A program made the position numbers and the translations under genes. From NCBI GenBank assembly GCA_046160825.1, contig JBJXHC010000038.1:3697-67696 (forward strand): DNA of 64,000 nt. Reading direction: 5' to 3'. Positions 34,683 to 54,002 of the stretch are shown here, piece by piece; position 1 is the stretch's first letter; each line of letters begins with the position of its first letter. Source of the DNA: Bacteroidota bacterium (GTDB taxonomy: Bacteria > Bacteroidota > Ignavibacteria > UBA10030 > UBA6906). The notes below the pieces were generated by a model, which was given only the letters and a program-made list of their open reading frames with translations, did not search any database and was not told the origin of the DNA.

Positions 34683-35705
34683 CTAAAGTTGGTATTCGAT
34701 GACTTTCTTTTTGGGGTCAAATGTTTCAAGCTGGCTTAGTCCGAGGTTATCAATCGCTGCCTTCATCAATCCTTCGTCGGAAGAAGCCGAGGGATCATAA
34801 AATTTGCCGGCCATAAGCAGGGCCTCTTTCGGGGTGAGTCCGACGATCTCGCTTCCCGTTACAGTGACACCGAGCGTGGCCGCTTGCTTCTTCACTTCTT
34901 CGAACACCGCGTGAGGCGGAGTCACGAGGTAGTTTACCACATTGATGGAAACCTGCGCAATATTGTGCGCGTCCAGTAACACGCCCATCGCCTTTATTGC
35001 CTTCAGTGTTCCGGGAATATTCACTTTCTGTCCCCGTGCATCCAGCACCGGATTACCGGAAGCGTCCTTTTTCACTCTGCCACTTTCGCGTATCGTGAGT
35101 GCGATCTCTTGTGCGATCTTGGAATCTGCGGTAGCGAGATTGACATTGTAGGCGATCAGGAACATACGCGCTCCAGTCACGGTGCCACCGGATTTCGGGT
35201 TGAACACTGTCGGGCCATAATCCGGCACCCAGGCAGGATCCTGAAGCTTCTCAGCAAGTCCCTCGTACTCTCCCTTTCTGATGGTGGAGAGGTTCCGGCG
35301 TTCGGGGCGTGTTGCCGCTTCTTCATACAGGTAGATGGGGATGTTCAGTTCTGCGCCGGCGCGCTTGCCAAACCGATGAGCAAGTTGTACACACTCTTGC
35401 ATCGTCACGCCGGAGACCGGGATGAAGGGCACGACATCCGTTGCACCCAGTCGCGGGTGTTCTCCCTTCTGTTCCGTCATATCAATAAGTTCGCACGCTT
35501 TTCGGGTTGCCGCAAACGCAGCTTCAACAACCGCATCCGGTTCACCGACGAAAGTCACCACGGTGCGATTATAGTCCTTGTCCGGCTCGGCGCTGATGAA
35601 CTTCACGCCGGACACGGCGCTGATCGCTCCTCCGATTGCGTTGATCGTCTTGATATTCCGTCCCTCACTGAAGTTGGGGACACATTCCACTATCCGGGTC
35701 ATCAC
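34683..35705 (-). CDS. ftcD: Glutamate formimidoyltransferase
   Basis: ECVPNFSEGRN at the N-terminus and the FT N- and C-subdomains are present. Confidence 0.85.
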   Translation of the reverse strand: MMTRIVECVPNFSEGRNIKTINAIGGAISAVSGVKFISAEPDKDYNRTVVTFVGEPDAVVEAAFAATRKACELIDMTEQKGEHPRLGATDVVPFIPVSGVTMQECVQLAHRFGKRAGAELNIPIYLYEEAATRPERRNLSTIRKGEYEGLAEKLQDPAWVPDYGPTVFNPKSGGTVTGARMFLIAYNVNLATADSKIAQEIALTIRESGRVKKDASGNPVLDARGQKVNIPGTLKAIKAMGVLLDAHNIAQVSINVVNYLVTPPHAVFEEVKKQAATLGVTVTGSEIVGLTPKEALLMAGKFYDPSASSDEGLMKAAIDNLGLSQLETFDPKKKVIEYQL

Positions 35706-35720: not shown

Positions 35721-36965
35721 TTAGAATTCGAGGATGGTGCCATTTTTCACAACGGTATTAATATGGTTCATACCAAAATGATATGCGAGAAACGTGTAGT
35801 CCGGAATGTGCGCGATAACCATATCGGCATTTTTTCCGACCTCGATACTTCCCACGCTTGTGGACATATCCAGAGCGGCGGCGGCATTCAATGTTGATGC
35901 GGTGATTGCTTCCTCGGGCGTCATCTTCATTTGTGTACAGGCAATTGTCATCATCAGCGGCATGGAGAACGACATACATGAGCCGGGATTGAAATCGCTC
36001 GCGATGGCCACAGGAACATCACCGTCAATTAACGACCGGGCCGGCGCGTATCCATGACTCAGAAAGAACGACACTCCCGGAAGCAATGTCGCCACAACAC
36101 CAGTGTCTCTTAGCGCGGCAATACCCTCCGGGGTCACATGTTCAAGATGATCCGCCGATGCAGCACCAACCCGCGCCGCAAGTTGAGCGCCTCCAAGGGA
36201 GGTCAGCTCTTCAGCATGAACCTTTACTCCCATCCCTTGCTGTTTTGCTGCATTCAGTATACGTTCCGAATCTTCGATCTCAAAGTACCCCTTCTCACAA
36301 AACACATCGGCAAATGTTGCCAGCTTCTTCCGACCGACATATGGTATCATTTCTTCGATCACCAATCGAACATACTCCGCCTTATTCTGCTTGTATTCGG
36401 GTGGAACCGCATGCGCGCCAATAAATGTCGGCACAACGGTCATCATCTCCTCCGTCTTGAGTTCATTGATCGCCTCAAGCATCTTGATCTCGGAGTCCAT
36501 ACTCAATCCGTAACCCGATTTTATTTCCACCGTTGTTGTGCCGTGTTTCATCATATCGGTCATGTATCGCGCAGTGGAACGCTTCAGTTCTTTCTTGCTT
36601 GCCGCCCGAACGTGCGAGAGGGTATTGAGAATCCCGCCCCCCTGCTCGGCAATCTGCTGGTATGTCGCTCCTTGTGCGCGCAAAGCAAACTCGTGTGCGC
36701 GGTTTCCGGCAAACATCATGTGTGTATGTGAATCCACAAACCCGGGAAATACGACTTTGCCTGCGGCATCAATCTCAGGCGTATCTTCACTCAAGGGCTC
36801 TGTGAAAGCATTCATTTCACCAACCCAGGCAATCTTCCCATTCAGACACAGTACGCCGGCATTACGAATGATTCCAAGGTCGCTCATCGCGCGACCAGTC
36901 TTCACGCGTTTCCCCCCGGATGCCACGGTCACCAATTGGGAAATGTTCTTGATGAAGAGTTTCAA
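35721..36965 (-). CDS. hutI: Imidazolonepropionase
   Basis: It is an amidohydrolase carrying FVDSHTHMMFAGNRA and HAEEL motifs. Confidence 0.9.
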   Translation of the reverse strand: MKLFIKNISQLVTVASGGKRVKTGRAMSDLGIIRNAGVLCLNGKIAWVGEMNAFTEPLSEDTPEIDAAGKVVFPGFVDSHTHMMFAGNRAHEFALRAQGATYQQIAEQGGGILNTLSHVRAASKKELKRSTARYMTDMMKHGTTTVEIKSGYGLSMDSEIKMLEAINELKTEEMMTVVPTFIGAHAVPPEYKQNKAEYVRLVIEEMIPYVGRKKLATFADVFCEKGYFEIEDSERILNAAKQQGMGVKVHAEELTSLGGAQLAARVGAASADHLEHVTPEGIAALRDTGVVATLLPGVSFFLSHGYAPARSLIDGDVPVAIASDFNPGSCMSFSMPLMMTIACTQMKMTPEEAITASTLNAAAALDMSTSVGSIEVGKNADMVIAHIPDYTFLAYHFGMNHINTVVKNGTILEF

Positions 36966-37072: not shown

Positions 37073-38227
37073 TTACGGGGAGACCACAAGTTGCTTTTGG
37101 ATGGCAGGTGACAGTGTGGGGAGGTTGTTGTTCGAGCGCGTCAACTCAACATACTTGCCATAAAATTCCATTGGACCGAGAGCAATGGTAGCAGCGAGAG
37201 CAGGACGGCCAAGGGTGATATCAATTTGCCGCGCGATGAATAATCCGGTGATGGCTCCGTAACTGTCCCAGTATTCCGATGTATTGGATGCACGGATGAT
37301 CTCACCAGCGCGACGTGGCGAGGTTCGAGGAGAGAGCAGATCGGACGCATTCTTATTGAACTCATCGAACGACGCGTTGATGCGCTGATCCCAATCCTGC
37401 GGCAAATATCCACGCGAGCGTTGCTCGAATGAAAGATAGTGCGCGATACCTTCATTGTGGGTGAGTTCAAGAAGCCGGTCAAGGTATGTTTGACGTGAAG
37501 CGAAGTATTCCTGCCACACAGCAGATGAGTCCTGATACACGCCGAGCGTTGCATGAAAGACTTCGTGCGCAACCACGGCGAGGGTGCCGATAAATCGTTC
37601 GTCCAAATTCCGCCCGTAGTTCACGGCTTTGGCGAGGTTCACCACAATAGTCAGTTCACCTTCCCCTTCACCAACGAAGACCGGTACGTCTCCACGCCAG
37701 ACAACACGACGAACGAACGCGTCAATGTTGCCGTGGCCAAACGCGACAAAGAAGACCGGAATCGACGTGGAGATTTCAGTATTGACGGGGAACAACTGCT
37801 CCACCGTCCCCACAACACGACGGCCAAAATTCCTGCGCTTGATTTCATCCAACAATTCCCTCATCGCGAGTGCCTGGATTCTCGCCTCTCCCATTCCGTA
37901 GACATCCCCTTCGGAGCGTTGACCAAATTTCGCATCCGTGAGATTCTGGACAAGATGATCCATGCCGAACGTCTTCTGTGCAAGGAGTTCCGCCGTTGCC
38001 AAAGCGACCATACTGCCTCTGAGCGTCGCCACATCCTCCGGTCTGCCTGAACGTCCTTCGTACAACTCCACAGTCTTTTCTGCGGACTCCATATTAAGAG
38101 AAAGCCTGACATCAAAGTTCGAGTTGGTCTGAGCATAGACGGCAGGAGAAAAAAAGAATAAATACCCGGACATCACCCACATAACCCCGTCACTCCATCT
38201 CTCCAATACTCCGTGGCTCCCATTCAT
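37073..38227 (-). CDS. Secreted hypothetical protein with an HExxH motif (DUF2268-like putative zinc peptidase)
   Basis: It has a signal-like N-terminus (a possible start at the MWVMSGYLFFFSPAVYA Met) and VVAHEVFHATLGVYQ. It is inserted between hutI and the PP2C gene. Confidence 0.5.
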   Translation of the reverse strand: MNGSHGVLERWSDGVMWVMSGYLFFFSPAVYAQTNSNFDVRLSLNMESAEKTVELYEGRSGRPEDVATLRGSMVALATAELLAQKTFGMDHLVQNLTDAKFGQRSEGDVYGMGEARIQALAMRELLDEIKRRNFGRRVVGTVEQLFPVNTEISTSIPVFFVAFGHGNIDAFVRRVVWRGDVPVFVGEGEGELTIVVNLAKAVNYGRNLDERFIGTLAVVAHEVFHATLGVYQDSSAVWQEYFASRQTYLDRLLELTHNEGIAHYLSFEQRSRGYLPQDWDQRINASFDEFNKNASDLLSPRTSPRRAGEIIRASNTSEYWDSYGAITGLFIARQIDITLGRPALAATIALGPMEFYGKYVELTRSNNNLPTLSPAIQKQLVVSP

Positions 38228-38231: not shown

Positions 38232-39593
38232 TCACTCCGTTTTCACCACTACCATGGTCATATCATCGTGTTGTTCAGCCTGACCGACGAATACCTGGAC
38301 TTCCTTCGTGATCGCTTCAAGTATCTGGCTGGCCGAAAGAGTCGAGACCGGAAGCTGCTTTACAAACTCATCGAGTCGCTCGGATCCGTATTGTTCATCT
38401 TTGATATTCATCGCCTCAGTGAATCCATCCGTCATGAGGAGTAAGATGCTTCCCGGTGTGAGTTGTATTGAACGTTCCTGATACGTCGCCTCCTCGGTCA
38501 TACCAAGAGGGAATGTTGCGCCGTTGGCATTGAGCCACTCAACTGCTCCATCCCGACAGAGCAACGGTTTGATCTGTCCAGCATTTGCAAACGTGAACGA
38601 CTTTGCAGCAACATCAATCACTCCCAGGAGGAACGTCACAAAATGGCCGCGGCGTGAATACTTGTACACCGATTTGTTCAAGTGCGTGAGGATTTCAGCG
38701 GGCGACGATGCTTGTCGGGACTCACTGACAAACGCACCCGTGGTGAACACCGCCGACATTGCAGCGTGCATTCCCTTACCCGACACATCAAAAGTACTGA
38801 TGCCAAAGAGAGATGTGCTATTATTGAGATACGAATAATCAAAATGATCGCCGCCCACCACCTTCGCTGGAAGCGACTGTCCCGCAATATCAAACCCGGA
38901 GACCGGGGGGCATTGTGCAGGCATCAAGGAGACCTGCACATCGTGGGCGAGTTTGAGTTCTGTTTGCAGAGTCTCGCGCTCGCCGCGTTCACGCGACACC
39001 ACCCAACTGAGCAGATTGACTGCACCGAGCACAAGACATCCTGCCACAATCAGAGCCATCAGACCAGTCCCTATCTCAAGATAGGCCACAATGAGACCAA
39101 GGGTTATGAGCGTGTAGCTGATCGCAACAAGACGCTTTCTGTCATCGGGAAAGTCGGCGTAGATTTCATCGGTCCAGAGAAGCGAGAAAAGGAAAGCATC
39201 CCAAAGCTTTGTCTGCCCACCGGATGATTCCATCTTTCGTCGGTATACCTCTTTCTTCTCCAGCGCAATCACGGTTATTCTCTCCCACATGAAATAGAGA
39301 ATACCGGCTATTACAAGATCAAATCCGAACCGCGACCAGTTGTCGCTGCTTACGCCCTCCGCAATCGCGCCGAGAATTTCCAACGCAATAAGTACCTTTA
39401 TGATCGTGAGGATGATCTTTCTGAGCTTGATCGGATCAATGAATGGGGGATTGTTCAGCCGCTGGCCCACCGTACCCGCTGATTGCCGCTGCCACGATTG
39501 CTTTGCATCAGAAACCACTCCTTGCACCGAGGATTGAATGTCCTCAGCTTCCTTCCTGAAATATGTCCCTACACCGGCAAGAGTTTTTTTCAT
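38232..39593 (-). CDS. Membrane-anchored PP2C-family serine phosphatase (SpoIIE/RsbU-like)
   Basis: About five N-terminal TM helices are followed by a PP2C domain (VVGGDHFDYSY, DVSGKGMHAAM, LLLMTDGFTEAMN). Confidence 0.8.
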   Translation of the reverse strand: MKKTLAGVGTYFRKEAEDIQSSVQGVVSDAKQSWQRQSAGTVGQRLNNPPFIDPIKLRKIILTIIKVLIALEILGAIAEGVSSDNWSRFGFDLVIAGILYFMWERITVIALEKKEVYRRKMESSGGQTKLWDAFLFSLLWTDEIYADFPDDRKRLVAISYTLITLGLIVAYLEIGTGLMALIVAGCLVLGAVNLLSWVVSRERGERETLQTELKLAHDVQVSLMPAQCPPVSGFDIAGQSLPAKVVGGDHFDYSYLNNSTSLFGISTFDVSGKGMHAAMSAVFTTGAFVSESRQASSPAEILTHLNKSVYKYSRRGHFVTFLLGVIDVAAKSFTFANAGQIKPLLCRDGAVEWLNANGATFPLGMTEEATYQERSIQLTPGSILLLMTDGFTEAMNIKDEQYGSERLDEFVKQLPVSTLSASQILEAITKEVQVFVGQAEQHDDMTMVVVKTE

Positions 39594-39795: not shown

Positions 39796-41457
39796 TCATT
39801 TCATCATTGGCACGTTCACACCCTGGCTCTTCGCATTCTCAATCGCACGTTCATACCCTGCATCAGCATGACGGATAATTCCCATTCCCGGATCGTACGT
39901 GAGCACATGCTGTAATCTTGCTTCTGCTTCCTTGGTGCCATCAGCAACCACAACCATTCCCGCGTGGATGGAAAGTCCCATACCAACACCACCACCGTGA
40001 TGCACGCTTACCCAGCTTGCTCCACCGACTGCATTGAGCAACGCATTCAGGATGGGCCAATCGGCAATGGCGTCGCTGCCGTCTTTCATTTTCTCGGTCT
40101 CGCGGTTCGGTGAAGCGACAGAGCCACAATCCAAGTGATCGCGTCCGATGACAATCGGCGCTTTCACTTCTCCTCGTGCAACAAGGTCATTGAATATCTT
40201 CCCCATCTTTGCTCGCTCACCGTAGCCGAGCCAGCAAATCCGCGCCGGTAATCCCTGGAAGTGTATCTGCCTCTGCGCCTTCTCTATCCAGCGGCACAGC
40301 GGCTTGTTCTCCGGAAACGTCTCGAGAATAGCCCGGTCGGTTCGATAAATATCATCCGGCTCACCGGACAATGCCGCCCAACGGAATGGCCCTTTTCCAT
40401 CACAGAATAACGGTCGAATATACTCCGGCACAAAGCCAGGAATATCAAAAGCATTGGTCAAACCGTTTGCCAGCGCCTCACCGCGGATATTGTTGCCGTA
40501 ATCGAACGTTATTGCGCCCCTTTTCTGTAGGCCCAGCATAGCCTGTACATGTTCAACGATGGACGCCTGTGCAAGTTGCATGTACTTCTTCGGATCTGAT
40601 TTGCGGAGGGCAAGCGCTGCCTCATATGAAATGTGGGCGGGGACGTAACCGTTCAGCGTATCATGCGCCGATGTTTGATCGGTGAGAATATCAATCTTGA
40701 TGTTGCGAGCAAGAAGCTCCGGCAACACCTCGGCAGCATTCGCAAGCAGAGCAACGGACTTGGCTTCCTTGAGTTCTTTGGCGGTTTGCAAAATGAGCAA
40801 CGCTTCATCGAGTGATGTTGCCATCTCATCGACGTATCCGCTCTTGAGTCTCTTCTCGATGCGTGAGCGATCGACTTCAATAGCGAGACATGCTGCACCG
40901 TTCATCGTTGCGGCGAGAGGTTGCGCGCCTCCCATGCCCCCAAGTCCGGCGGTGACGAGGAGTCTGCCAGCAAGGCTCCCCCCATAATATTTCTCCGCAC
41001 ATGCAGCAAACGTTTCGTATGTCCCTTGGAGAATCCCTTGTGTGCCGATGTAAATCCAGCTCCCCGCGGTCATCTGACCGTACATCGTAAGGCCGAGAGC
41101 TTCGAGCCGACGGAACTCATACCCCGTCGCCCATTTGGGGACGAGCATACTGTTGGAGATGAGGACACGAGGAGCGTTCTCGTGCGTTTTGAAAATACCA
41201 ACGGGCTTACCGGATTGTACGAGCAGCGTCTCATCGTTTTCCAGGCTCTTTAAGCTGCGCACGATTGCATCGTAGCATTCCCAATTGCGTGCCGCTTTGC
41301 CGACGCCGCCGTAGACAATCAACTCATCTGGCTTTTCTGCAACGTCGGGATCAAGATTATTCATCAGCATACGTAGCGCTGCTTCCTGTATCCAGCCTTT
41401 GCAGGAGAGGGTGGTACCGTGGGGGGCTTTGATATTTGTCTTAGCTACGTCAAGCAT
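39796..41457 (-). CDS. hutU: Urocanate hydratase
   Basis: [23 protein letters not shown] and the rest of the sequence are HutU-like. The track ORF start (41517) was trimmed to Met 41457 because the extension [20 protein letters not shown] is a translated REP hairpin. Confidence 0.9.
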
Positions 41458-41482
41458 GAGCAATGCTCCATTGATTTCCTTT

Positions 41483-41552
41483 GACTTGCCACGAGCTTCA
41501 GCTCGTGGATATTTCAAATGCCAAAATATACCAGAGGGCTTTAGCCAAATCC
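41483..41552. repeat. REP-like repeat, left copy (palindrome 41489-41508)
   Basis: The repeat sits in the hutU 5' leader and abuts the tnpA stop. Confidence 0.7.
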
Positions 41553-41563
41553 ATAAGGGGTCT

Positions 41564-42001
41564 CTAGCCCTTCCTCAAAGCGGTGAATCCATACTCTTTC
41601 AGAAATTCATCATATTCCTCTGCGAACGACTTCTTCCGGTGGTGTTCTTCCTGATTCTTGATATACTCCCTCACGATATCAATCGTCGAATCGCTTACTG
41701 ATACTGCAATATACTCATCTTGCCACTCAAGCTTCGTGGGCATGAGTTGTTGTTGATTGAACCAATGTGATGATTCTCCTTTGAGAAGCTGAGCCACCTT
41801 GGCAATGGACTGATCCGCTCCAAGAGAAATCAAGGAGTGAATATGCTCGATATGTCCATTGATGAAGTCGAGATAAATCCCTTTTGCACGGGCGTTCTCT
41901 CTGATATGTGTGAACAACTGCAATCTGATCTCTTTGCTTAAAAGCGGCTCCCGGTTTTTTATTGACCAGATCAGATGAATCCAGATTCTGAGATATGGCA
42001 T
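41564..42001 (-). CDS. tnpA: IS200/IS605-family Y1 (HuH) transposase, REP-associated tyrosine transposase-like
   Basis: It is 145 aa with a HuH motif (HIHSLISL), LLKGESSHW, a Tyr region ([11 protein letters not shown]) and [11 protein letters not shown], matching the TnpA_IS200 (PF01797) pattern. There is no tnpB partner. Confidence 0.85.
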
Positions 42002-42147
42002 TTTTGTGTTTGGGTTAAAACCCCCAGTGGTGGGGAGTTGGGTTTCTTGTCCACGACCTAAAGGTCGTGGCTAGTCCTTTGGGAAAACTTGACTCTCCGG
42101 ACGCTCGGCAGAGCGGAAAGGTTATGGCTTAGTCTTCATTGGGGCAT

Positions 42148-42214
42148 GACTTGCCACGAGCTTTAGCTCGTGGATTTCCGAAAGTCTCAAAACGCTGAGG
42201 GCTTTAGCCAAACC
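42148..42214. repeat. REP-like repeat, right copy (palindrome 42154-42173)
   Basis: It is a direct repeat of 41483-41552 and abuts the RidA lipoprotein stop. Confidence 0.7.
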
Positions 42215-42216
42215 TC

Positions 42217-42699
42217 TCACTCCCCCTTCCACGCCACCACCGCAATTTCCACGTTCGCCTGTCGTGGCAACTCGCTTACGGCAACAGCTGTACGGGCGGG
42301 ATAGCTCTCCTCCGGGAAATAGCCACCGTAGATCAGATTCATCTTCGGGTAGTCATTCATGTTCTTGAGATAGACCGTTGCGTTGATGACGTGGGATGAA
42401 TCGTACCCGGCGGCGCGGAGGATATGCATGAGGTTGTTCAGCACCTGCCGTGTTTCGGCTTCGATATTCTCGTTGCGCACCGCGCCGGTTTCCTGGTCGA
42501 GGGCGATCTGTCCTGAGACAAAAAGGAACGGGCCAACCCGCACCGCCGGACTGTACGGTCCGATCACATCTACAGGTTTCACAATTTGCTTTCCCTCGTA
42601 CCGGGACATTTCCTCCTGGACAATCTTCCGGATATTCTCCTCATCCGATCCGCAACCGAACAGAAGACACGATACCGCAATGATAGCAAGTTGTTTCAT
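42217..42699 (-). CDS. RidA/YjgF family protein with a lipoprotein signal (periplasmic or envelope-located)
   Basis: The lipobox is MKQLAIIAVSCLLFGCG. The RidA fold is indicated by PYSPAVRVGPFLFVSGQ and the C-terminal EIAVVAW. Confidence 0.8.
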   Translation of the reverse strand: MKQLAIIAVSCLLFGCGSDEENIRKIVQEEMSRYEGKQIVKPVDVIGPYSPAVRVGPFLFVSGQIALDQETGAVRNENIEAETRQVLNNLMHILRAAGYDSSHVINATVYLKNMNDYPKMNLIYGGYFPEESYPARTAVAVSELPRQANVEIAVVAWKGE

Positions 42700-42701
42700 G
42701 A

Positions 42702-43040
42702 TCAGTCTCCTGCGACGAGCGTAATCTCAAGACGTTCTTCGGAGGTCTCTTCATCCTTCACCACCTTGAACGAAACAACCGCATGAAGCGCAATCATCGT
42801 CGTTGCGTCATCGCTCTCAACGGTGATGAAATCAGTCCCCACCTTTGCAAGTTTGCCCAGATTGGTTTGTTTGCCCACGTGCTTCGCAAGCATCTCTTTG
42901 AACGTCCCGGCAGATTGTGTTGTCTTGGGTTTCTCCGTCTTCTGGGACTTCTGTGCAACTGCCGGCACAACAAGCAGGGCGCAAAAGAGAATGGCAACAA
43001 GTGTTTTCAACAACGATGATCGTTTCATGTGTTCCTCCAT
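42702..43040 (-). CDS. Small secreted hypothetical protein
   Basis: It has a signal peptide (KRSSLLKTLVAILFCALLVVPAVAQ) and is about 108-112 aa. It is tightly packed (a 2-nt gap) with the RidA gene. Confidence 0.5.
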   Translation of the reverse strand: MEEHMKRSSLLKTLVAILFCALLVVPAVAQKSQKTEKPKTTQSAGTFKEMLAKHVGKQTNLGKLAKVGTDFITVESDDATTMIALHAVVSFKVVKDEETSEERLEITLVAGD

Positions 43041-43056
43041 GTGAAAGTCACGACGG

Positions 43057-44337
43057 TTAGGCCAACGACTTCAACGCATCAACCAACTTCTGCACTTCCT
43101 CCCGGCTGTTATATATGTGAGTGGAAACTCGATTGCAATTCAGGCCATTCTCCGGCACCATCCGTGTGATAATTTTATGGTTCTCCAATAAGGTTTTCTG
43201 GAGGATATCATACGCAATATTCTTTAATCTGAATCCCAACACGGAGCCATACCCGCTGGCTTCATCTGGAGTCAGGATCTCCACCTTGTCGCCCATTGAC
43301 TGCAACTCCGAGCGCAGGACTGACGTAAGCGCCTGGCCGCGCCGCGTGACGTTCTCCATTCCGAGATGGTGCAGGAAGTCGATTGCTGCGCCCAGCCCGA
43401 CGTACAGCGCCGAATTCTGTGTGGCGAAGTCGTATTTGTGTGCATCCTTGCGGAACTCCAATGTTCCTTTCTGCAAATCCCATCCCGTATCTGAAAGCGC
43501 GCCCACCCAGTATGGCTCCACTTCGTCCTGAACTTCCTTCCTCACATAAAGAAACCCCGTGCCCTTCGGTCCCATCATCCATTTGTGACCGCACGTTGCA
43601 AGAAAATCGCAGCCCAGTTCCTTCACGTCCAGCGGCAACATACCGGGCGTGTGGGCAGCATCGAGCATCACGCGCAATCCCTTCTCATGCCCGAGCTGAC
43701 ATATCGCCTTTGCAGGAAGCACCTGTCCGATGGTGCAGGTGATATGCGGGACAGCGATAACCCGCGTACGTGGTGTGATCAGATCATTGATCCGGTTGAG
43801 AATTTCATCGGCCGTGGACGCGAGGGTAACCGGTTTAACCACGATGCCATCCCGGCGCGCACGTGCAAGCCACGGCACTGCATTGCCGGCATGTTCATGG
43901 TTCGTGAGGATTACTTCGTCACCGCGCTTCAACGGAAGTCCACACGCCACAACGTTGATTCCTTCGGTAACATTGTGGGTCAATGAAATCTCTTCCACGC
44001 TCGCATTGATGAAGCGTGCGATCTTCGCCCGTACATCTTCCCAGCCACCGTAGCGAGCGGTGCGGTCCACTTCCTCCATTTCCGTCTTCACTGCATCAAT
44101 AACGACGTAAGGTGAGGGCCCCATGGTGCCGTTATTCAGGAATACTGGTTCACGTCTCAGTGGAAACTGCTCGCGCACCATGCGCCAGAAATGTTCGTCA
44201 TCCTCCGGTACGCGCTGATCGTTACTCAGAATGTACTTTGCGCGCGCATCATCGGGAAATGCGTACAGCATCGCCCCGCCAAGCGCACCACCGGCAAATG
44301 TTCGGAGAAAAGATCGTCGTGTGGCAGAAGGAAGCAT
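43057..44337 (-). CDS. Tat-exported class-V aminotransferase-fold PLP enzyme (cysteine desulfurase / isopenicillin-N-epimerase-like)
   Basis: The twin-arginine signal is MLPSATRRSFLRTFAGGALGG...ARA. The class-V fold is shown by VPHITCTIG and a PLP-Lys region (ATCGHKWMMGPKGTGFLY). Confidence 0.8.
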   Translation of the reverse strand: MLPSATRRSFLRTFAGGALGGAMLYAFPDDARAKYILSNDQRVPEDDEHFWRMVREQFPLRREPVFLNNGTMGPSPYVVIDAVKTEMEEVDRTARYGGWEDVRAKIARFINASVEEISLTHNVTEGINVVACGLPLKRGDEVILTNHEHAGNAVPWLARARRDGIVVKPVTLASTADEILNRINDLITPRTRVIAVPHITCTIGQVLPAKAICQLGHEKGLRVMLDAAHTPGMLPLDVKELGCDFLATCGHKWMMGPKGTGFLYVRKEVQDEVEPYWVGALSDTGWDLQKGTLEFRKDAHKYDFATQNSALYVGLGAAIDFLHHLGMENVTRRGQALTSVLRSELQSMGDKVEILTPDEASGYGSVLGFRLKNIAYDILQKTLLENHKIITRMVPENGLNCNRVSTHIYNSREEVQKLVDALKSLA

Positions 44338-44340
44338 GGG

Positions 44341-44958
44341 TCACTCCTCAGTAACGGCAAGATGTGAATGAAATGGAAGCCCCGCATTGGCTTCAGGTTG
44401 TTCGACGGCCTCGGTCGGTAGTTTCTCAAATCCCCAACTGAGTGAATGGTTTCCGGAAGAATCCCGCGATACCACCACTACGGCAAACACGTCGGAAGTC
44501 CAATAGCTCCGCATCAATCGCTGGTCGCCATTTTCCTGCAACTCCTGATGGTAGTTTCCAAATTGCATGGTATAAAATGATTGCAGTCGTCCGTATGTTG
44601 TCGCGCTCGTCATGCTGTCACCGGTAATCACAAACGAATAACGAATCAATGCGTCATCCTCAAACTTCATCTCAACAATTGCGTCCCACCCGGTCATTAC
44701 ACGCATCGTTCCGGATGCAATACCCGTGAGAGCTTGACCAGGGGCCGATCCGTTTCGTACTTCACCGAGCGATGGAAACCTGAGCTTTACATCGTTGTAC
44801 GATAAACCCAAAGGAAGATGATTGATCATCAACAACTGTTCCCGCTCAACAGAAAGAGTATCAACACGGGGAGGGTGCGATTCACTTTGCCTTCCGCAAC
44901 CGAAGATGCACGTGAAAGCCCAGAAGCCAACAATGACATAGCTGAAGTGTATTCTCAC
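44341..44958 (-). CDS. Hypothetical lipoprotein
   Basis: The lipobox is FTCIFGCG. It is 205 aa with no recognisable domain. Confidence 0.5.
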   Translation of the reverse strand: MRIHFSYVIVGFWAFTCIFGCGRQSESHPPRVDTLSVEREQLLMINHLPLGLSYNDVKLRFPSLGEVRNGSAPGQALTGIASGTMRVMTGWDAIVEMKFEDDALIRYSFVITGDSMTSATTYGRLQSFYTMQFGNYHQELQENGDQRLMRSYWTSDVFAVVVVSRDSSGNHSLSWGFEKLPTEAVEQPEANAGLPFHSHLAVTEE

Positions 44959-45443
44959 AGACCAATCCCCCTGATAATTTCAGGTGACAGAAGCCAGAGC
45001 AGGTGTGATTCCGCACGCGAAGCCTTCACCTTCAGGCCCGCGACACTGCCAGGCTGAAAGGCGACATGCGATGTCCCGGAAAGCAAATAAGAAACGAACA
45101 TGCTCATATCCGGCTGATGGCCGACGGCTGCAATACTTCCATCGCCACTCAACGCAACCAATTCATCAAGCAGCGACTTCTGCCGGAAACCGGGTGCAAG
45201 ATGTTCCGAAACATGAAAGATCGGGTTGCGACTTATAGCACGTCCGATGATTCCACCGGTTTGCACCGCTCTCACCAAAGGACTTGTCACAACCACATTG
45301 ATATTCGGGTCGAGCCGGACGAGCGACTTCCCAACGATTTCGGCATCTGCTTCGCCCACCGTGCTGAGAGGGCGATCGAAGTCCCGCCGGATGATTCCGC
45401 CAAGGGCTACGGCCTCGGCGTGTCGTACAAGATAGAGATTCAT
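44955..45443 (-). CDS. sixA: Phosphohistidine phosphatase SixA (histidine phosphatase superfamily)
   Basis: LYLVRHAEA (RHG motif) is present and the protein is 162 aa. An ATGA overlap joins it to the downstream lipoprotein gene. Confidence 0.75.
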   Translation of the reverse strand: MNLYLVRHAEAVALGGIIRRDFDRPLSTVGEADAEIVGKSLVRLDPNINVVVTSPLVRAVQTGGIIGRAISRNPIFHVSEHLAPGFRQKSLLDELVALSGDGSIAAVGHQPDMSMFVSYLLSGTSHVAFQPGSVAGLKVKASRAESHLLWLLSPEIIRGIGL

Positions 45444-45460
45444 GATTCTTGCGGGTGGAG

Positions 45461-45970
45461 TTATGTCCCTAGTTTTGGATTGTGGGGAACAAACCGTATC
45501 GCTTGCGTGGTCAGCTCACGATGATTCACCCGCATCCCTTTGAGTGTGACGACCAATTCCTCTCCCGCAATCTTCAACCATGGATCGGCAAGTTTGGTTT
45601 GATCGACGTGCCCTTCCAATCTGAGTGTCTCTCTCCCGCCGGGCAACACAAATGGAATATCCATCGGAATGAACTTGTCGTTGTACCGGTAAGGAATATT
45701 ACGAGAGGCAATCTTCACGTATGCGAGAGAGAGATCAAGGGTATCTTTGCCGGAGTTGTGTATTTCGACAATAATGGACGTTGTTATTCCGTCGCCAATT
45801 TGATACGAAGCTGAAACTGTGTATGTCACTCTTCCGGAGACGGCCTTAGCAGTGTAGGTGGCGCAACGGCAATCATCATTGAGTGCGTGGTAGGGATATG
45901 TCGACGTGCAGCCGTTTACAAGAAAAATACCGGCCGCGAGCAGCGCCCATACTGTATGGATGCGCTTCAT
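45461..45970 (-). CDS. Hypothetical lipoprotein
   Basis: The signal with lipobox is MKRIHTVWALLAAGIFLVNGC. It is 169 aa. Confidence 0.5.
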   Translation of the reverse strand: MKRIHTVWALLAAGIFLVNGCTSTYPYHALNDDCRCATYTAKAVSGRVTYTVSASYQIGDGITTSIIVEIHNSGKDTLDLSLAYVKIASRNIPYRYNDKFIPMDIPFVLPGGRETLRLEGHVDQTKLADPWLKIAGEELVVTLKGMRVNHRELTTQAIRFVPHNPKLGT

Positions 45971-45977
45971 CGGAGGA

Positions 45978-47066
45978 CTATTTCTTCAGACGCTGGCGGG
46001 CTTTTATGTAGCCCGGCTTGATCACATCATAAATCAACCGGATGCGTTTGTTGTAGGGAATAAACGCGCTCTTCATGGAATTGATGGTGATTTTTTCCAG
46101 ATCATCCAGCGAGAGCTTGAAGACCTGGTGCGCTATTTTGAATTCCTTCGTCATCGTCGTATCACTCATCAGCTTGTCGTCGGTATTCAGTGTCACCCTG
46201 AATTTGTATTTGTGAAATACACCGAATGGATGTTCCTCCAGACTTTTTACCGCTCCGGTATCCACGTTGCTTGTCAGGCATATTTCCAGCGGTATGCGCT
46301 TGTCCAAGACGTACTGCGCCAGATAGCCCATTTTGACAATCTTATGTGGCTCGCGTTTATCAAGGCCGACATCCTCGATCAATCGCGTCGCGTGTCCGAT
46401 ACGGTGAGCACCACACCATTGAATAGCCTGCCAGATACTCTCCTTGCCAAACGCTTCGCCCGCGTGAATGGTAATATTGAAGTTCTCCCGTTGGATATAA
46501 TGAAATGCATCCACATGCTTCTTCGGTGGAAATCCACCCTCCTCGCCCGCCAAATCGAATCCCACGACTCCGCGTTCGCGATAATCCACTGCAAGCTCGG
46601 CCATCTCCTGGGAAAGACTCATGTTCCGCATCGCGCAGATGATCAGGCCATACTCAACGCCAAAATCCTTGTATCCGCGTTCAAGGCCCTTGAGAACGGC
46701 ATTCACCACACCATCCCAGTGCAGGCCCTTGTCCGTATGAAAGATCGGTGAGAAGCGAGTCTCGACATACACCACGCCGTCATTGTACATATCTTCCATC
46801 ATCTCATACGCAACCCGCTCCAACGCTTCCTCGGTTTGCATCACACCGCACGTGTGGGCAAAGCCTTCAAGGTAGAGAGGCAAACTTCCACGTTTTGCTC
46901 CCCGATGGAACCACTCCTGAAGCTCTCCTGCGTCCGATGTCGGAAGTTTGTCATACCCGATATCCTTCGCCAATTCAATCACTGTTTGGGGCCGGAGACC
47001 GCCATCGAGATGATCGTGGAGAAGAACTTTTGGTAGTGTTTGGATGAATCGGTCGGATAGTCGCAT
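45978..47066 (-). CDS. add: Adenosine deaminase
   Basis: LPKVLLHDHLDGGLRP, HAGE and SLNTDD motifs are present. The start was trimmed from track ORF 47282 to the MRLSDRF Met. Confidence 0.85.
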   Translation of the reverse strand: MRLSDRFIQTLPKVLLHDHLDGGLRPQTVIELAKDIGYDKLPTSDAGELQEWFHRGAKRGSLPLYLEGFAHTCGVMQTEEALERVAYEMMEDMYNDGVVYVETRFSPIFHTDKGLHWDGVVNAVLKGLERGYKDFGVEYGLIICAMRNMSLSQEMAELAVDYRERGVVGFDLAGEEGGFPPKKHVDAFHYIQRENFNITIHAGEAFGKESIWQAIQWCGAHRIGHATRLIEDVGLDKREPHKIVKMGYLAQYVLDKRIPLEICLTSNVDTGAVKSLEEHPFGVFHKYKFRVTLNTDDKLMSDTTMTKEFKIAHQVFKLSLDDLEKITINSMKSAFIPYNKRIRLIYDVIKPGYIKARQRLKK

Positions 47067-47236
47067 GGTGAGGCCGCTTTGAGTTACTGTGGTGAGAAGT
47101 TGAATGCTGTGGTCAAGGTAAGAACAACACCATAAAGAATCAATAAATTCAACGGGTTGACGGGATTTCAGGTTGACTTTCGACGAGCTTTTCTCTATCG
47201 TAACCACGTGATCTCTCACTCGCGAGCGCAACGAAG

Positions 47237-47428
47237 ATGCCGCAAAGCGGATCGCAGGGAAATAACAAGGTTGGTACCGCAATACACATCAAAGAAGTCA
47301 AACGGATGCTCATCGAGACCATCCCGCAGAGTTTTCGTGGTAACAAGACTGAGTCGGCCAACATCCTCGGCTTCAGCCTGAAAACTCTCCATACCAAAAT
47401 CCAGCAATACCAGATCAAGTCGAATTGA
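47237..47428 (+). CDS. Stand-alone Fis-type helix-turn-helix protein (63 aa)
   Basis: The C-terminal 45 aa (IKEVKRMLIETIPQSFRGNKTESANILGFSLKTLHTKIQQYQI) match the HTH_8/Fis family pattern (GNKTxAAxLLGISRKTLYRKLKxYGI). An in-frame stop lies 12 codons upstream, so this is not a truncated larger regulator. Confidence 0.5.
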   Translation: MPQSGSQGNNKVGTAIHIKEVKRMLIETIPQSFRGNKTESANILGFSLKTLHTKIQQYQIKSN

Positions 47429-48498
47429 GCACCCGGGCAGTTGCTTTCGCCACACTCCCCACTCCCGTTCGCCAATCGTCAATCACTCTTCTCTACCTCG
47501 TCGTCGCGCTGATCATCTTTGCGATGTGGGTGTGGAGTGCGGAAACAGTTCACACATCACTCAATGGTGATCCCCGGTCAAAACTCTCCGATTTGATTCA
47601 CGGTCGGGCACACAATCCCTTTGTACAGCGAGCGCTTGTTCCACTTTTGACTCGAGCCGTTCATCAGATCCTGCCGGCCACCTTGACGGGTGATTTAGAA
47701 CTTTATCTCTTCTCTATCCCAAAAGTCAAGAAGGAAATGTTGCGACTCGGCTGGGAAGAAGAATACTTTGTCGAGTCCCTCGTTGCACTTTCGTGGGCGT
47801 TTATTGCCTTGGCGGCGTTTCCGTTCGCTGTTCAGGCCCTGTGGAAGGCCATCTACTCCACATCGGAATTCGTGACAGCCATGGTTCCAGTGATTGCACT
47901 TCTCTCCCTGCCGCCATTCTTTCATGTAGGAACCCATTATGTGTATGATTTCCCATCATTGTTTCTCTTTACTGCCGTGCTTGTCTGCGTTGTCCGACGG
48001 GCTTGGTGGCTGAGTTATATTCCGTTCTTACTTGGTTGTTTGAACAAGGAAACAATCATCTTTGCTTCGTTGACCGGCATTATTCTGTACTGGCATGACC
48101 GTGAGAGGACCAGAATGGCGCGGCATGTGGCCGTGCAATTCTTGTTGTTCATCGTGGTCAAACTAATGTTGATGCAAGTCTTTTCGGGCAACCCAGGAAC
48201 CTCCGCCGAGTTTGCGCTGTACGCGAATATTCACCAACTCCTCCTGGGTTATGATGCAGTCCCACTCACCATGACGGCGACGCTGGTTGGGTTGATCGGC
48301 TACCGGTTCCGCACGAAACCTGTAGTGCTTCAAAAACTATTGTGGTTGGCCCTGCCGTTTTTTCTCTTACTGATGTTGTTCGGTCGCATCGGCGAGTTGA
48401 GGGTGATGTATGAGATCGTTCCGGTTGTGCTCTTTCTCATTCTTCACACTCTGTTCTTCGACGTATTCAAGTTCCGGTATGCGCCGGTTGAACCTTGA
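47425..48498 (+). CDS. Polytopic integral membrane protein of unknown function
   Basis: It is 357 aa with about 8-9 hydrophobic helices. An ATGA overlap joins it to the Fis-like gene. Confidence 0.6.
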   Translation: MSTRAVAFATLPTPVRQSSITLLYLVVALIIFAMWVWSAETVHTSLNGDPRSKLSDLIHGRAHNPFVQRALVPLLTRAVHQILPATLTGDLELYLFSIPKVKKEMLRLGWEEEYFVESLVALSWAFIALAAFPFAVQALWKAIYSTSEFVTAMVPVIALLSLPPFFHVGTHYVYDFPSLFLFTAVLVCVVRRAWWLSYIPFLLGCLNKETIIFASLTGIILYWHDRERTRMARHVAVQFLLFIVVKLMLMQVFSGNPGTSAEFALYANIHQLLLGYDAVPLTMTATLVGLIGYRFRTKPVVLQKLLWLALPFFLLLMLFGRIGELRVMYEIVPVVLFLILHTLFFDVFKFRYAPVEP

Positions 48499-48521: not shown

Positions 48522-49325
48522 ATGATCATACATATTTCGGCCCTCGATCTTCCGGAGCTTCGACCGTACCGCACACTGCGGAGACACCAGCAACACAAGG
48601 ACGATGGCATTTTTGTTACCGAAGGTGAGAAGGTCGTGCGACGCCTGCTTGCCTCCGATCTTCGGATCGTTTCCATTCTTGTAACACCCGAATGGCTGGC
48701 AGCTCTTTTTCCACCGGGATCTGAACCGACCTGCACCGTGTATGTGGCCGAGAAGCCTCTCCTTGATACCATTGCCGGCTTCCGGCTTCATCAGGGAATC
48801 ATGGCCGTGGGGAAACTTCCGGAAGAGAGACCGCTCGATGATGTGCTCGCTTCACTCCGCACGCCATTATTGATTGTGGCTCTGGATGGACTGATGAACG
48901 CCGAGAATGTGGGTGTGGTGGTGCGGAACTGCGCTGCATTCGGTGTGCAGGTTATTCTCGTTGGCCAGACATCGTGCAGTCCGTATTTGCGACGGGCAGT
49001 GCGTAACTCGGTGGGTGCGGCGTTCAAGATACCAATTGTTCACGTGAACGATCTTGCCGATGCCCTGTCACGAGTCAAGCAACGAACGAAAGCACGCATC
49101 GTTGCAACATCCCTGCATCAGAGCATATCGATCCATCAAGCCAAATTCACAGATGATCTCTGTCTGGTATTGGGAAATGAAGAAACAGGCGTCGCTTCGG
49201 ATGTTCTTGCCGTGTGCGATGAACGGGTGGCCATTCCCATGTTAAATGACACGGATTCGCTCAATGTTGCCAGCGCAAGTGCAGCGTTCCTCTATGAGGT
49301 ACAGCGCCAGCGGTCGCAGACTTAA
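48522..49325 (+). CDS. TrmH/SpoU-family RNA 2'-O-methyltransferase
   Basis: It has a SPOUT C-terminal domain (LVLGNEETGV, NVASASAAFLYE). Confidence 0.85.
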   Translation: MIIHISALDLPELRPYRTLRRHQQHKDDGIFVTEGEKVVRRLLASDLRIVSILVTPEWLAALFPPGSEPTCTVYVAEKPLLDTIAGFRLHQGIMAVGKLPEERPLDDVLASLRTPLLIVALDGLMNAENVGVVVRNCAAFGVQVILVGQTSCSPYLRRAVRNSVGAAFKIPIVHVNDLADALSRVKQRTKARIVATSLHQSISIHQAKFTDDLCLVLGNEETGVASDVLAVCDERVAIPMLNDTDSLNVASASAAFLYEVQRQRSQT

Positions 49326-50725
49326 GACTCTCTTCCATTCGCAATCATCCCCATCCCCCACACTAACGCTGAGACCAGCAGTCCTGGAAACATTGGTTCA
49401 ATCCCCAGAGGATACTGATGCGAACTGCCCGCGGCCTGCGTCCATCCGGACAACAGCCACACTGTTGATGTGAGCCAGCCGAGGAGCATGGCTGCAAAGC
49501 AATACCCCGCCGCGACTTTCCAACGTTCGAAGTAGCTTGCCAGTACCGGCAGGAGCAATCCGGGAACTACTACGGTGCCGATGACGTACCATTGCCGGAT
49601 TACCGACGGGACAAAAACGCAAAGCAGTATCGAGAACAATGCAGTTGCGAGCATCGACCAGCGGATGTACTGTGCATCATTTATTCCATCGCGGTCTCTG
49701 TGGCTGCGCCAGAGAATATCACGGCCAAGTGATGTTGCTGAAACAAATGTGAGTGTATTGAGCGTCGACATAATTGTGGCAAGCATGCCGATGTAGAATA
49801 ACCCTTTAGCCACAGGAGGAAGCGTCACTTCCGCAAGCAACGGAAATGCCATCATCGGCTGCTCGAGTGCAGGAAGAGCTGCACGTGCATACAGTCCTGC
49901 CGTTGCGGTCATAGCGTCGAACAAAAACCAGAACAATATGGAAACGAGAATGCCCTTCTGCGCCACTTCGCCCGACTTTGCGGCAGAGCAGCGTTGATGA
50001 AATGCCGGATCAATCAACGTCCAGAGTGCGATCAGGAACCAGACAAGGACGAACTGCATGGAGTTGCCACCGTTCCAGGTAAGGTGGAGTGCAGGGATGT
50101 TCGCCGTGATAAATTCCATTCCGCCAAACTTCTGATACGCGAATGGAATGATAACACTGAACCCGAGGAACATCAGCACAAACTCCAGAACATCCGTATT
50201 CACGTCCGCGCGGAACCCGCCAAAGAAGAGATAAACAGTGGAGACAGCTGTTCCTATAAAGATGCAGAGTAATATTCCCCACCCGGTGACGAGGTGCATT
50301 AACATTCCGAGCATGAGAATGTATGGGGCGGGAGTAGTGAGAATGAACGTCAGCGCGCCGCCAAGCATCGCTGTACGGCGATCATACGCACGCTCAAGCT
50401 GATCCGGAATTGTGGTGAGGTTGGTTGCCCGGATTTTCTTTGCGAGGAAGAGTGCGAAGAGCAACGCAAACACATAGTAGGGAATGCCCTGTACAACCCA
50501 ATTGGAAATCCCATAGAGATAGGAGAATTCGCCCACGCCCAGTATTCCACCATACCACGTGGAGACAAGCGTCATGACAAACAACGGAAGAGTAAGCGAA
50601 CGTCCGGCGAGAAGGAACTCGGCCGCATCGCTTGGCTTCCTTTTGGTAAGGAAGCCGATAGCCAGCACAGCGATAAAATACAACGCTATGAGAGCCAGGT
50701 CCACCGGAGAAAGTGTGACATTCAA
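49322..50725 (-). CDS. Sodium:solute symporter (SSS) family transporter
   Basis: It is 467 aa with about 13 TM helices, and SSS-like with GGxxA motifs. It is convergent (a 4-nt overlap) with the TrmH gene and co-directional with the downstream thiN gene. Confidence 0.8.
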   Translation of the reverse strand: MNVTLSPVDLALIALYFIAVLAIGFLTKRKPSDAAEFLLAGRSLTLPLFVMTLVSTWYGGILGVGEFSYLYGISNWVVQGIPYYVFALLFALFLAKKIRATNLTTIPDQLERAYDRRTAMLGGALTFILTTPAPYILMLGMLMHLVTGWGILLCIFIGTAVSTVYLFFGGFRADVNTDVLEFVLMFLGFSVIIPFAYQKFGGMEFITANIPALHLTWNGGNSMQFVLVWFLIALWTLIDPAFHQRCSAAKSGEVAQKGILVSILFWFLFDAMTATAGLYARAALPALEQPMMAFPLLAEVTLPPVAKGLFYIGMLATIMSTLNTLTFVSATSLGRDILWRSHRDRDGINDAQYIRWSMLATALFSILLCVFVPSVIRQWYVIGTVVVPGLLLPVLASYFERWKVAAGYCFAAMLLGWLTSTVWLLSGWTQAAGSSHQYPLGIEPMFPGLLVSALVWGMGMIANGRES

Positions 50726-51354
50726 CTGCGTTTCGCCTTCCGGGAATCAAGTATCAACACGAGCATGTTGCCTTTCCCTACACTCACTTTGAAGGGCGAG
50801 CGAACAGCGACATTTGAAACCCCGATCTCACCAACGGTCATCCGCGCATTTGTAAGCGGGTATTTCAATCCGCTCAATGTTATTCCGGAACAAGACCCGA
50901 ATGGAATGAGGCTTACCGTCGCCCCGCGAGCGACCCGGCGTATGAGCTTTCGTTGTATGGGGAACGCCTGCCATCCATCACCAGCTACGGTGATATTTAT
51001 TTTCCCGGCATACTTCCACAGAACCGAGAGATTGCCAAGAGTAAAATCGAGTCGGCGACCGGTCGCGGCGACGATCACGACATTCTTCACCCGCGGGGAG
51101 AGAATGTCCAATGCCTTTTCAAGATCCGTATTGTCCTGCCGCTTCACGTGAATGATAAGAGAAGATGCAAAGTGTTTTCGGGTTGAGGCGCGCAACGAAT
51201 CGAGGTCGCCGATGATAATATCCGGACGCACGCCTGAGACTCGTGCAGAGTTCGCTCCGCCATCCGCGGCAACAATCAGATCCGCCGCACGGGCATGACG
51301 ACGAAGCAAAGTGCGGGATGGGGGTTCACCGTTACAGATTACGAGTGCTTTCAT
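50722..51354 (-). CDS. thiN: Thiamine pyrophosphokinase
   Basis: ALVICNGEPP, IVAADGGAN, IIGDLDSL and RQDNTDLEKAL are the TPK catalytic-domain motifs. The start was trimmed to the MKALVICNG Met. Confidence 0.8.
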   Translation of the reverse strand: MKALVICNGEPPSRTLLRRHARAADLIVAADGGANSARVSGVRPDIIIGDLDSLRASTRKHFASSLIIHVKRQDNTDLEKALDILSPRVKNVVIVAATGRRLDFTLGNLSVLWKYAGKINITVAGDGWQAFPIQRKLIRRVARGATVSLIPFGSCSGITLSGLKYPLTNARMTVGEIGVSNVAVRSPFKVSVGKGNMLVLILDSRKAKRS

Positions 51355-51361
51355 TGCATTC

Positions 51362-53782: not shown

Positions 53783-53800
53783 AACTCTTCTTCCTCACTA

Positions 53801-53833
53801 AATAAAAAAGCCGTTCTCATGAGAGAAACGGCT
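53801..53833 (-). terminator. Riboswitch expression-platform intrinsic terminator (hairpin GCCGUUUCUCUC/GAGAACGGC followed by UUUUUUAUUU), 18 nt before the receptor start codon
   Basis: The minus-strand reading is AGCCGTTTCTCTCATGAGAACGGCTTTTTTATTT. A purine-rich RBS (GAGGAAGAAGAG) follows. Confidence 0.65.
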
Positions 53834-53863
53834 GAAGAAAAAGAGCGGGAACAATTCAGGTTG

Positions 53864-53948: not shown

Positions 53949-54002
53949 ATTTCGTAAGCAATATACCGACTCCGTGGTCGTATTGCAACCACGGATGAGG
54001 GT

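Follow-up and report, generated by a model that had tools for sequence, protein, structure and literature searches.

RidA proteins are understood as cytoplasmic or organellar guards against the reactive enamines that arise from pyridoxal 5'-phosphate (PLP) enzymes, and the characterised members, including YjgF of Salmonella and E. coli and the archaeal PH0854 (PDB 2dyy), are soluble trimers of the cytoplasm or of organelles. To our knowledge, very few PLP enzymes work in the periplasm, and PvdN and PtaA are the examples that we found. For these two, export of the folded PLP enzyme by the twin-arginine translocation (Tat) system is established, and PvdN with a mutated active-site lysine failed to be exported (PMC6206403). 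PvdN is a periplasmic enzyme of Pseudomonas involved in pyoverdine tailoring, while the cystine C-S lyase C-DES of Synechocystis (PDB 1elq) is cytoplasmic and carries no export signal. Here we analysed a 64-kb stretch of contig JBJXHC010000038.1 from a Bacteroidota metagenome-assembled genome (MAG), hereafter the window, in which a class V PLP enzyme with a predicted twin-arginine signal is encoded close to a RidA protein with a predicted lipoprotein signal. This arrangement had been pointed out in a preliminary description of the locus and was confirmed, with all six open reading frames (ORFs) between 42217 and 45970 on the minus strand at the coordinates reported there. Both proteins are uncharacterised exported variants of known ones, PvdN/C-DES-like in the case of the PLP enzyme. 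We consider it the best reading, with a probability of about 0.6, that they represent two independent exported families located in a syntenic block.

Localisation was called throughout from motif rules combined with conservation across homologues. The PLP enzyme begins with M-L-P-S-A-T-R7-R8-S-F10-L-R, followed by 16 uncharged residues (TFAGGALGGAMLYAFP) and D-D-A-R-A/K (A31-R32-A33/K34), and the segment T6-R7-R8-S9-F10-L11-R12 agrees with the Tat motif (S/T)-R-R-x-F-L-K. The best 12-residue Kyte-Doolittle mean in its hydrophobic (h) region was 1.28, compared with 2.3-3.4 in the neighbouring Sec and lipoprotein signals, and such low hydrophobicity is expected of a Tat signal. The N-terminus thus combines a weakly hydrophobic, uncharged h-region with an A-x-A site and a basic residue in the c-region, and no other ORF of 80 aa or more in the window showed a Tat-like N-terminus. 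The RR motif was found in 111 of 120 homologues, the remaining nine being fragments or called from an internal Met of the h-region. R7, R8 and F10 were invariant in a 50-sequence alignment reaching down to 48% identity, and the true start of the protein therefore lies upstream of the RR motif. Residues 1-36 were disordered in the structure model. Together with the Aminotran_5 match, these results bear out the earlier assignment to class V with a twin-arginine signal, and on the available sequences this predicted signal is a conserved, defining feature of the enzyme family. No tat genes were identified within the window.

The best matches of the PLP enzyme, by sequence as well as by Foldseek, were type II cysteine desulfurases, with template modelling (TM) scores of 0.79-0.80 and 25-32% identity, and its fold was equally close to C-DES, the Tat-exported PvdN and SufS. 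The residues K226, H123, D200, R359 and R379 of SufS correspond to K252, H149, D226, R392 and R403, all of which are conserved, and the alignment of K252 with the PLP lysine K226 agrees with a class V fold. With the PLP Lys, the His, the Asp and both carboxylate-binding Args kept, as in SufS and CsdA, the enzyme retains the apparatus for alpha-amino acid binding. It differs from SufS and CsdA in its Tat signal, in having no SufE or SufU genes nearby, and in the catalytic loop: relative to E. coli SufS, a 9-residue deletion removes exactly the loop TGHHC364AMPL, and in an alternative HMMER register the SufS Cys position is occupied by Ile. A further deletion of 11 residues lies near SufS H55/R56. 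Across the family, the C-terminal third holds no invariant Cys. As the Cys loop is gone and no invariant C-terminal Cys is present, the protein is not a persulfide-forming desulfurase, and its sequence predicts that it cannot form a SufS-type enzyme persulfide. The scores against curated models were likewise far below the cut-offs for SufS (TIGR01979, 208 versus 475 bits; NF006791, 159 versus 661), CsdA (121 versus 607), IscS (62-70 versus 548-643) and PvdN (NF051467, 134.6 versus 650). The preliminary description had called the protein cysteine desulfurase- or C-S lyase-like; its SufS-like class V nature holds, but a persulfide desulfurase it is not.

PvdN resembles the window enzyme in fold and in its Tat signal, yet the two share 25% identity, and no pvd, pyoverdine or siderophore genes occurred in any neighbourhood of the window family that was examined. 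The hosts differ as well, being Bacteroidota, Ignavibacteria and Aminicenantes for the window family and pseudomonads for PvdN. C-DES is a Cys-less structural neighbour of the window enzyme, with a modest sequence similarity to it (E = 3e-31, versus 3e-44 for SufS). The family is large, highly conserved, uncharacterised and distinct from PvdN, and the open-access literature searched held nothing relevant on a Tat-exported cysteine-desulfurase-like enzyme. Around the PLP site, all family members carry three substitutions relative to SufS (N175 to Cys201, Q203 to His229 and S223 to Cys249). The two invariant cysteines beside the cofactor of an exported enzyme, C201 and C249, could serve in a disulfide or in ligand binding. 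The PLP gene was split over two frames in the related loci L006, L011 and L019; for L006 and L019, which come from long-read MAGs, the split is probably an indel error. L011 is a short-read assembly in which ridA is missing too, and its copy may be a genuine pseudogene.

The RidA protein scored 128.2 bits against TIGR00004 (cut-off 106.25), the model of the RidA subfamily, and 123.8 bits against PF01042 (cut-off 27.3), and its domain matched 2dyy with E = 9e-33. Over its full length, this domain (residues 44-158) can be aligned with cytoplasmic RidA structures, and the catalytic Arg position is R136 in the motif Y-P-A-R, aligned with the P-A-R of solved RidA proteins. The counterparts of the catalytic Arg, Tyr and Glu are invariant in the family, as C16, Y49, R136 and E151 were unchanged in an alignment of 36 homologues. 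The difference from the characterised proteins lies in the extension ahead of the domain, which consists of a signal peptide, the lipobox L13-F-G-C16 and a conserved acidic segment, a 25-residue helix. The structure model (predicted local distance difference test score 86) makes residues 18-33 a helix and adds a further strand after it. The lipobox pattern fitted 110 of 120 homologues, and the top 120 homologues were all about 160 aa long rather than about 125 aa. Judged from these alignments, the protein is a member of a conserved family of predicted lipoprotein RidA proteins of about 160 aa with an invariant lipobox Cys and catalytic Arg, and the lipobox noticed in the preliminary description is a conserved one. 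An exported or lipoprotein RidA was not described in the open-access literature searched.

In the window, the PLP gene and ridA are 357 nt apart on the same strand, with sec112, a gene for a small protein with a predicted Sec signal, alone between them. The neighbourhoods of both genes were compared in related genomes. On the PLP side, a scan returned 25 genome loci; on the RidA side, a metagenome scan with a lipoprotein-RidA profile was used, the best 80 matches of which gave 62 loci of the lipoprotein type, 50 with the slot between the Adenosine_kin gene (AdoKin, PF04008) and ridA fully covered. This slot was empty in 23 of the 50, held sec112 alone in 18 and contained the PLP gene in 9, which means that the PLP gene was absent from 41. 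Among the 28 loci with at least 1.8 kb of sequence upstream of ridA, 19 had no PLP gene, and 13 of these 19 kept Ada (adenosine deaminase) or SixA. Of 33 informative metagenomic loci, 27 had urocanase downstream of RidA.

The PLP-side loci gave a consistent picture. MAG loci labelled Bacteroidota or "Chitinophagales" shared the order Ada-(lipo169)-SixA-(AdoKin or lipo205)-PLP-(sec112)-RidA-urocanase, with the exception of L011, where the PLP gene is kept and an IS200 copy stands in place of RidA. Four further PLP homologues with 61-69% identity were located in the same backbone, which extends from an operon for a TonB receptor, thiamine pyrophosphokinase (TPK) and an SSF transporter to the histidine-degradation genes (TonB receptor-TPK-SSF...Ada-SixA-AdoKin-PLP-(sec112)-RidA-(M19)-HutU-SpoIIE-DUF5700-HutI-FTCD), and the window has the same layout. 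The conserved order spans more than 15 kb and includes unrelated housekeeping genes. The elements AdoKin, RidA and HutU are conserved in the block, whereas the PLP gene is facultative and lipo169 and lipo205 occur sporadically. Unusually, the window and the two loci closest to it, L001 and L011, carry lipo205 at the place where the others have Adenosine_kin. Outside the backbone, RidA was found within 6-7 kb of the PLP gene in none of 15 loci (Ignavibacteriales/Chlorobi-labelled, Aminicenantes, L019, L021 and P0100), and the neighbours differed by lineage. In the Ignavibacteriales/Chlorobi-labelled loci (L007-L010 and L024) the orthologue always followed thiL and preceded two tandem genes for secreted M14 carboxypeptidases of about 600 aa. 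In Aminicenantes (L013-L017 and L025) it lay between a divergent NCS1-like permease gene and a CMD/AhpD-like gene, beyond which come DUF3943, ftsH and folP.

Because 41 of the 50 RidA loci have no PLP gene and all 15 PLP loci outside the backbone have no RidA, the two genes do not co-localise beyond what synteny brings with it, and the dedicated PLP-RidA pair put forward in the preliminary description is not sustained. A comparison of the neighbourhood in relatives, which had been suggested there as a check, turned out against it: the adjacency is part of the long conserved order described above. The gene pattern fits an inherited order in which the PLP gene was repeatedly lost or gained, rather than a dedicated pair.

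Several points nevertheless weigh against two independent families. Within the syntenic lineage, RidA or sec112-RidA directly followed the PLP gene in 11 of 12 informative loci on the PLP side, and the PLP gene occurred nowhere else on the contigs of this lineage. The dependence may therefore be asymmetric, the PLP enzyme relying on RidA and RidA not relying on the PLP enzyme. Gene absence was counted in the neighbourhood, so that a gene missing there may lie elsewhere in the genome, and the RidA loci are the 80 best profile matches and not a random sample. The spacing of 2-16 nt in the window is also compatible with co-transcription.

On balance we favour two independent families, and the region would then be a lineage-specific, vertically conserved block of an uncultured Bacteroidota/Ignavibacteria-like bacterium rather than a dedicated envelope module, in which cytoplasmic housekeeping enzymes (Ada, SixA and HutU, with Adenosine_kin in relatives) are interleaved with exported proteins. 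The PLP enzyme would bind PLP and fold in the cytoplasm, be exported by Tat and, in the periplasm, act on an alpha-amino acid, either free or as a moiety. As no persulfide is possible, its most likely chemistry is that of the Cys-less structural neighbours C-DES and PvdN; our leading guess is a Cys-independent beta- or C-S lyase reaction as in C-DES, and the alternative would be decarboxylation or transamination as in PvdN. RidA would form a membrane-tethered trimer and hydrolyse enamines and imines, such as 2-aminoacrylate and imino acids, from any source to keto acids and ammonia outside the cytoplasm. The slot between AdoKin/SixA and sec112/RidA is one that the PLP gene may or may not fill. 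Since RidA is kept with or without the PLP gene, a general extracytoplasmic role of RidA is most likely, rather than one of servicing the PLP enzyme, which may still benefit from RidA wherever both are present.

The alternative that fares best is that the PLP enzyme is a periplasmic beta-eliminating cystine/cysteine C-S lyase releasing 2-aminoacrylate, that RidA is its dedicated quencher, and that the two are co-transcribed as a detoxification pair. Beta-elimination by PLP enzymes passes through aminoacrylate, and without a persulfide Cys, desulfuration by the window enzyme would have to go this way; the catalytic Arg136 of RidA is kept, the two genes are close together on one strand with sec112 alone between them, and RidA lies downstream in 11 of the 12 informative PLP loci of the syntenic lineage. 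The coupling of a PLP lyase with RidA is therefore chemically coherent and possible but unsupported: lipoprotein RidA does without the PLP gene in most of its fully covered loci (41 of 50), the PLP gene has no RidA nearby in any of the 15 loci outside the lineage, L011 carries the PLP gene without RidA, and the adjacency sits in more than 15 kb of conserved order of unrelated genes. We thus regard a dedicated pair as unlikely. A broader version, in which the Cys-less Tat-exported enzyme is a periplasmic beta- or C-S lyase acting on scavenged cystine or S-conjugated cysteines, and RidA quenches its 2-aminoacrylate as well as other extracytoplasmic imines in relatives without the lyase, appears doubtful to us. 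If true, this coupling would be the first RidA-type control of metabolite damage outside the cytoplasm.

Similarly improbable, in our estimate, is a separation of the two proteins, with the PLP enzyme in the periplasm and RidA displayed on the surface through its acidic run acting as a Bacteroidota lipoprotein export signal; if RidA were surface-exposed, the two would not share a compartment. The published export signals consist of a polar or basic residue and then at least two acidic residues directly past the Cys, namely C-X-K-(D/E)2 in Capnocytophaga and SDDDD or SDDFE in Bacteroides and Flavobacterium (PMC5080379). In the window, the lipidated Cys of RidA would be followed as C-G-S-D-E-E, and in the family as C-G/R-P-x-E/D-E/D-D, so that the whole family keeps acidic residues at +4 to +6, which resemble these signals, and the host is a Bacteroidota MAG. 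The composition of the run is therefore like that of the export signal, but its position is shifted by one or two residues from the experimental optimum, and position was critical in the published tests (PMC5080379). The segment is also predicted to be helical: in the model a conserved amphipathic helix (residues 18-33) starts with it and runs on into the fold, which would leave no free tether. This deep-branching lineage may also use a different export signal.

Thiamine-related neighbours in three lineages raised the possibility that the PLP enzyme serves in the periplasmic salvage of thiamine or pyrimidine. All five Ignavibacteriales/Chlorobi-labelled loci encoded ThiL directly upstream (TIGR01379, 289 bits), a faintly CytX-like NCS1 permease gene lay upstream in the Aminicenantes loci, and in the window an operon for a TonB receptor, TPK and an SSF transporter with a thiamine pyrophosphate (TPP) riboswitch is 5-9 kb away. 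However, thiL is a housekeeping gene, and in the window two opposite-strand genes separate the thiamine operon from the PLP gene. In 12 distant loci, the surroundings of the PLP gene contained no TPP riboswitch, and the CytX match was negligible (E = 0.007; 15.6 bits versus a cut-off of 310). On these last two grounds the link was rejected, and we consider it highly improbable. Finally, we give virtually no credence to an annotation artefact, in which the real start would be Met23 and the protein an ordinary cytoplasmic cysteine desulfurase of the SufS/IscS type, although six database homologues begin at the internal Met (MLYAFP...) and the top sequence and Foldseek matches are SufS, since R7, R8 and F10 upstream of Met23 are invariant in the protein, as non-coding DNA would not be, the ATG of the PLP gene lies 3 nt past the stop codon of the upstream gene, the catalytic Cys loop of SufS is deleted, the scores are far below the SufS, CsdA and IscS cut-offs, and no SufE, SufU or SufBCD genes occurred in any neighbourhood examined; the conserved residues 5' of Met23 and the missing Cys loop were decisive. 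A start downstream of the RR motif, which the preliminary description had itself raised as a danger, is likewise at odds with residues upstream of Met23 that are invariant down to 48% identity.

The window holds members of two well-conserved, unstudied families, a Tat-exported Cys-less SufS-like enzyme, spread over Bacteroidota, Ignavibacteria and Aminicenantes, and a lipid-anchored RidA. Should activity outside the cytoplasm be shown for either, the envelope of abundant uncultured soil and sediment bacteria would become a further site of amino-acid and PLP chemistry and possibly of the control of enamine stress. Tight spacing and an appealing chemistry did not withstand comparison with about 110 related loci, and the genes are therefore not to be annotated as a functional module.

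The other genes of the locus (Table 1) also argue against the envelope-localised functional unit that had been proposed. SixA matched TIGR00249 over positions 1-154 of 154 and carries the motif V-R-H-A-E at residues 6-10. Like all its orthologues, it begins directly at MNLY-x-x-RH without a signal peptide, its best N-terminal 12-residue hydrophobicity being only 1.06, and it is predicted from sequence to be cytoplasmic. With its full-length match and N-terminal RH(A/G)E, it is an ordinary member of its family with no evident link to the exported proteins. Of the group of SixA and three small lipoproteins or secreted proteins in the preliminary description, lipo169, lipo205 and sec112 are indeed predicted to be exported, and SixA is not. 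The unit is further undermined by the variability of lipo169 and lipo205 and by the cytoplasmic Adenosine_kin that most relatives encode in the slot of lipo205, homologues of which were found in L001 and L011 only. The lipobox pattern [LVI]-x-[GAS]-C was matched by RidA and lipo205; the V-N-G-C21 of lipo169 is atypical. Orthologues of lipo169, present in some relatives only (L001, L006, L012, L027, L028, L030 and L035), have the canonical L-A/G-G-C. In lipo169 and its orthologues the motif YPY(R/H)..ND.C.C(E).(Y/F) directly follows the lipobox, and the C-x-C conserved in it might form a disulfide or bind a metal.

No Pfam or NCBIfam family was assigned to sec112, lipo169 or lipo205. The sec112 protein is 100% identical to the NCBI MAG protein ACKVRP_05260, whose start is M5 (position 43028). 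Its family is built from a signal ending in A-x-A/QKKK, a linker of variable length rich in Lys, Pro and Gln, and a conserved C-terminal domain of about 65 aa with the pattern ..G..TNLG.L.KV.GDY.V.E....T...PL.A....K..K.EE.....EI.L. The sole Pfam match was a weak one to DUF2642 (E = 0.004-0.012) in 2 of 16 members, and a word-indexed homology search with sec112 returned three close relatives only. The gene lay between AdoKin or the PLP gene and RidA in 22 of the 50 fully covered loci; it was commoner there than the PLP gene and belongs to the two genes most often seen directly before lipoprotein RidA.

Table 1 Features of the locus and its flanks, in window coordinates
Feature	Position	Strand	Evidence or remark
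Adenosine deaminase (Ada)	45978..47282	-	PF00962 E = 6e-102; NF006847 484 bits vs cut-off 412
lipo169, predicted lipoprotein	45461..45970	-	Lipobox V-N-G-C21; no Pfam/NCBIfam family
SixA-type phosphohistidine phosphatase	44955..45443	-	TIGR00249 79.3 bits vs cut-off 74.5; His_Phos_1
lipo205, predicted lipoprotein	44341..44958	-	Lipobox I-F-G-C21; no family match
PLP enzyme, class V, SufS-fold, 426 aa	43057..44337	-	Aminotran_5 E = 1e-61
Predicted twin-arginine signal peptide, PLP enzyme residues 1-33	44239..44337	-	R7-R8 codons 44314-44319; predicted cleavage A-R-A33/K34
sec112, small protein with predicted Sec signal	42702..43040	-	Signal ends A-V-A29/Q30; family alignment
RidA, 160 aa, predicted lipoprotein	42217..42699	-	PF01042; TIGR00004; lipobox Cys16 codon 42652-42654
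IS200-like Y1 transposase element	41489..42212 (gene 41564-42001)	-	PF01797 E = 2e-25; NF033573 61.5 bits vs cut-off 55
Urocanate hydratase (HutU), cytoplasmic	39796..41517	-	Conserved neighbour 3' of lipoprotein RidA

From ada to ridA, seven minus-strand genes follow one another with gaps of -4 to 17 nt. The first gene of this co-directional run encodes the cytoplasmic Ada; lipo169 starts 7 nt past its end, and the gaps between lipo169, SixA, lipo205, the PLP gene, sec112 and RidA are, in order, 17, -4, 3, 16 and 2 nt. On the 3' side of RidA there is a gap of 215 nt, then the IS200-like gene and then urocanase. A promoter and terminator scan of 41400-47600 gave counts no different from those in shuffled sequence, with a consensus that does not fit Bacteroidota promoters, and is therefore uninformative on operon structure. 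The Ada ORF opens with a TTG start 72 codons upstream of the point where matches to homologues begin (residues 67-73). This start adds a spurious N-terminal extension, and the real one is probably near residue 73, at a Met at about position 47066, which would leave about 360 nt of intergenic sequence before the divergent gene at 47425.

The IS200-like gene is flanked by direct repeats of about 60 nt with hairpins (41489-41549 and 42154-42212), each of which starts with TTTGGCTAAAGCCCTC and ends in a CCACGAGCT-NAA-GCTCGTGG hairpin; there is a third hairpin at 42051-42070. Inserted between ridA and hutU, the element is absent there in the closest relative L001, while L011 has an 88%-identical copy at the same position and is missing ridA. 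Beyond the element, the histidine-degradation genes are split, as hutU stands apart from a HutI-like amidohydrolase gene (35721-36965), FTCD (34683-35705) and a cyclodeaminase gene (34042-34674, minus strand). A 69-aa ORF, a membrane SpoIIE/PP2C phosphatase gene (38232-39593) and a gene for a DUF5700 putative peptidase (37073-38227) lie between hutU and the HutI-like gene. No hutH was seen in the stretch examined, and the split order is conserved in L107-L109.

When the window was scanned with Rfam and for tRNAs, one TPP riboswitch but no rRNA or tRNA came to light. The riboswitch (53852-53953, minus strand, 73.8 bits) is located ahead of genes for a TonB-dependent receptor (51362-53782), a thiamine pyrophosphokinase (50722-51441) and an SSF transporter (49322-50725), and the region 49322-53953 looks like a thiamine-uptake operon. 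This operon is also conserved upstream of the Ada-RidA block in the relatives L107-L109 and L111. Just beyond the riboswitch, a gene on the minus strand (54003-55412) encodes a protein of the arylsulfotransferase (ASST) family with the canonical lipobox L-V-A-G-C followed by S-E-N-P-E, a further predicted lipoprotein enzyme.

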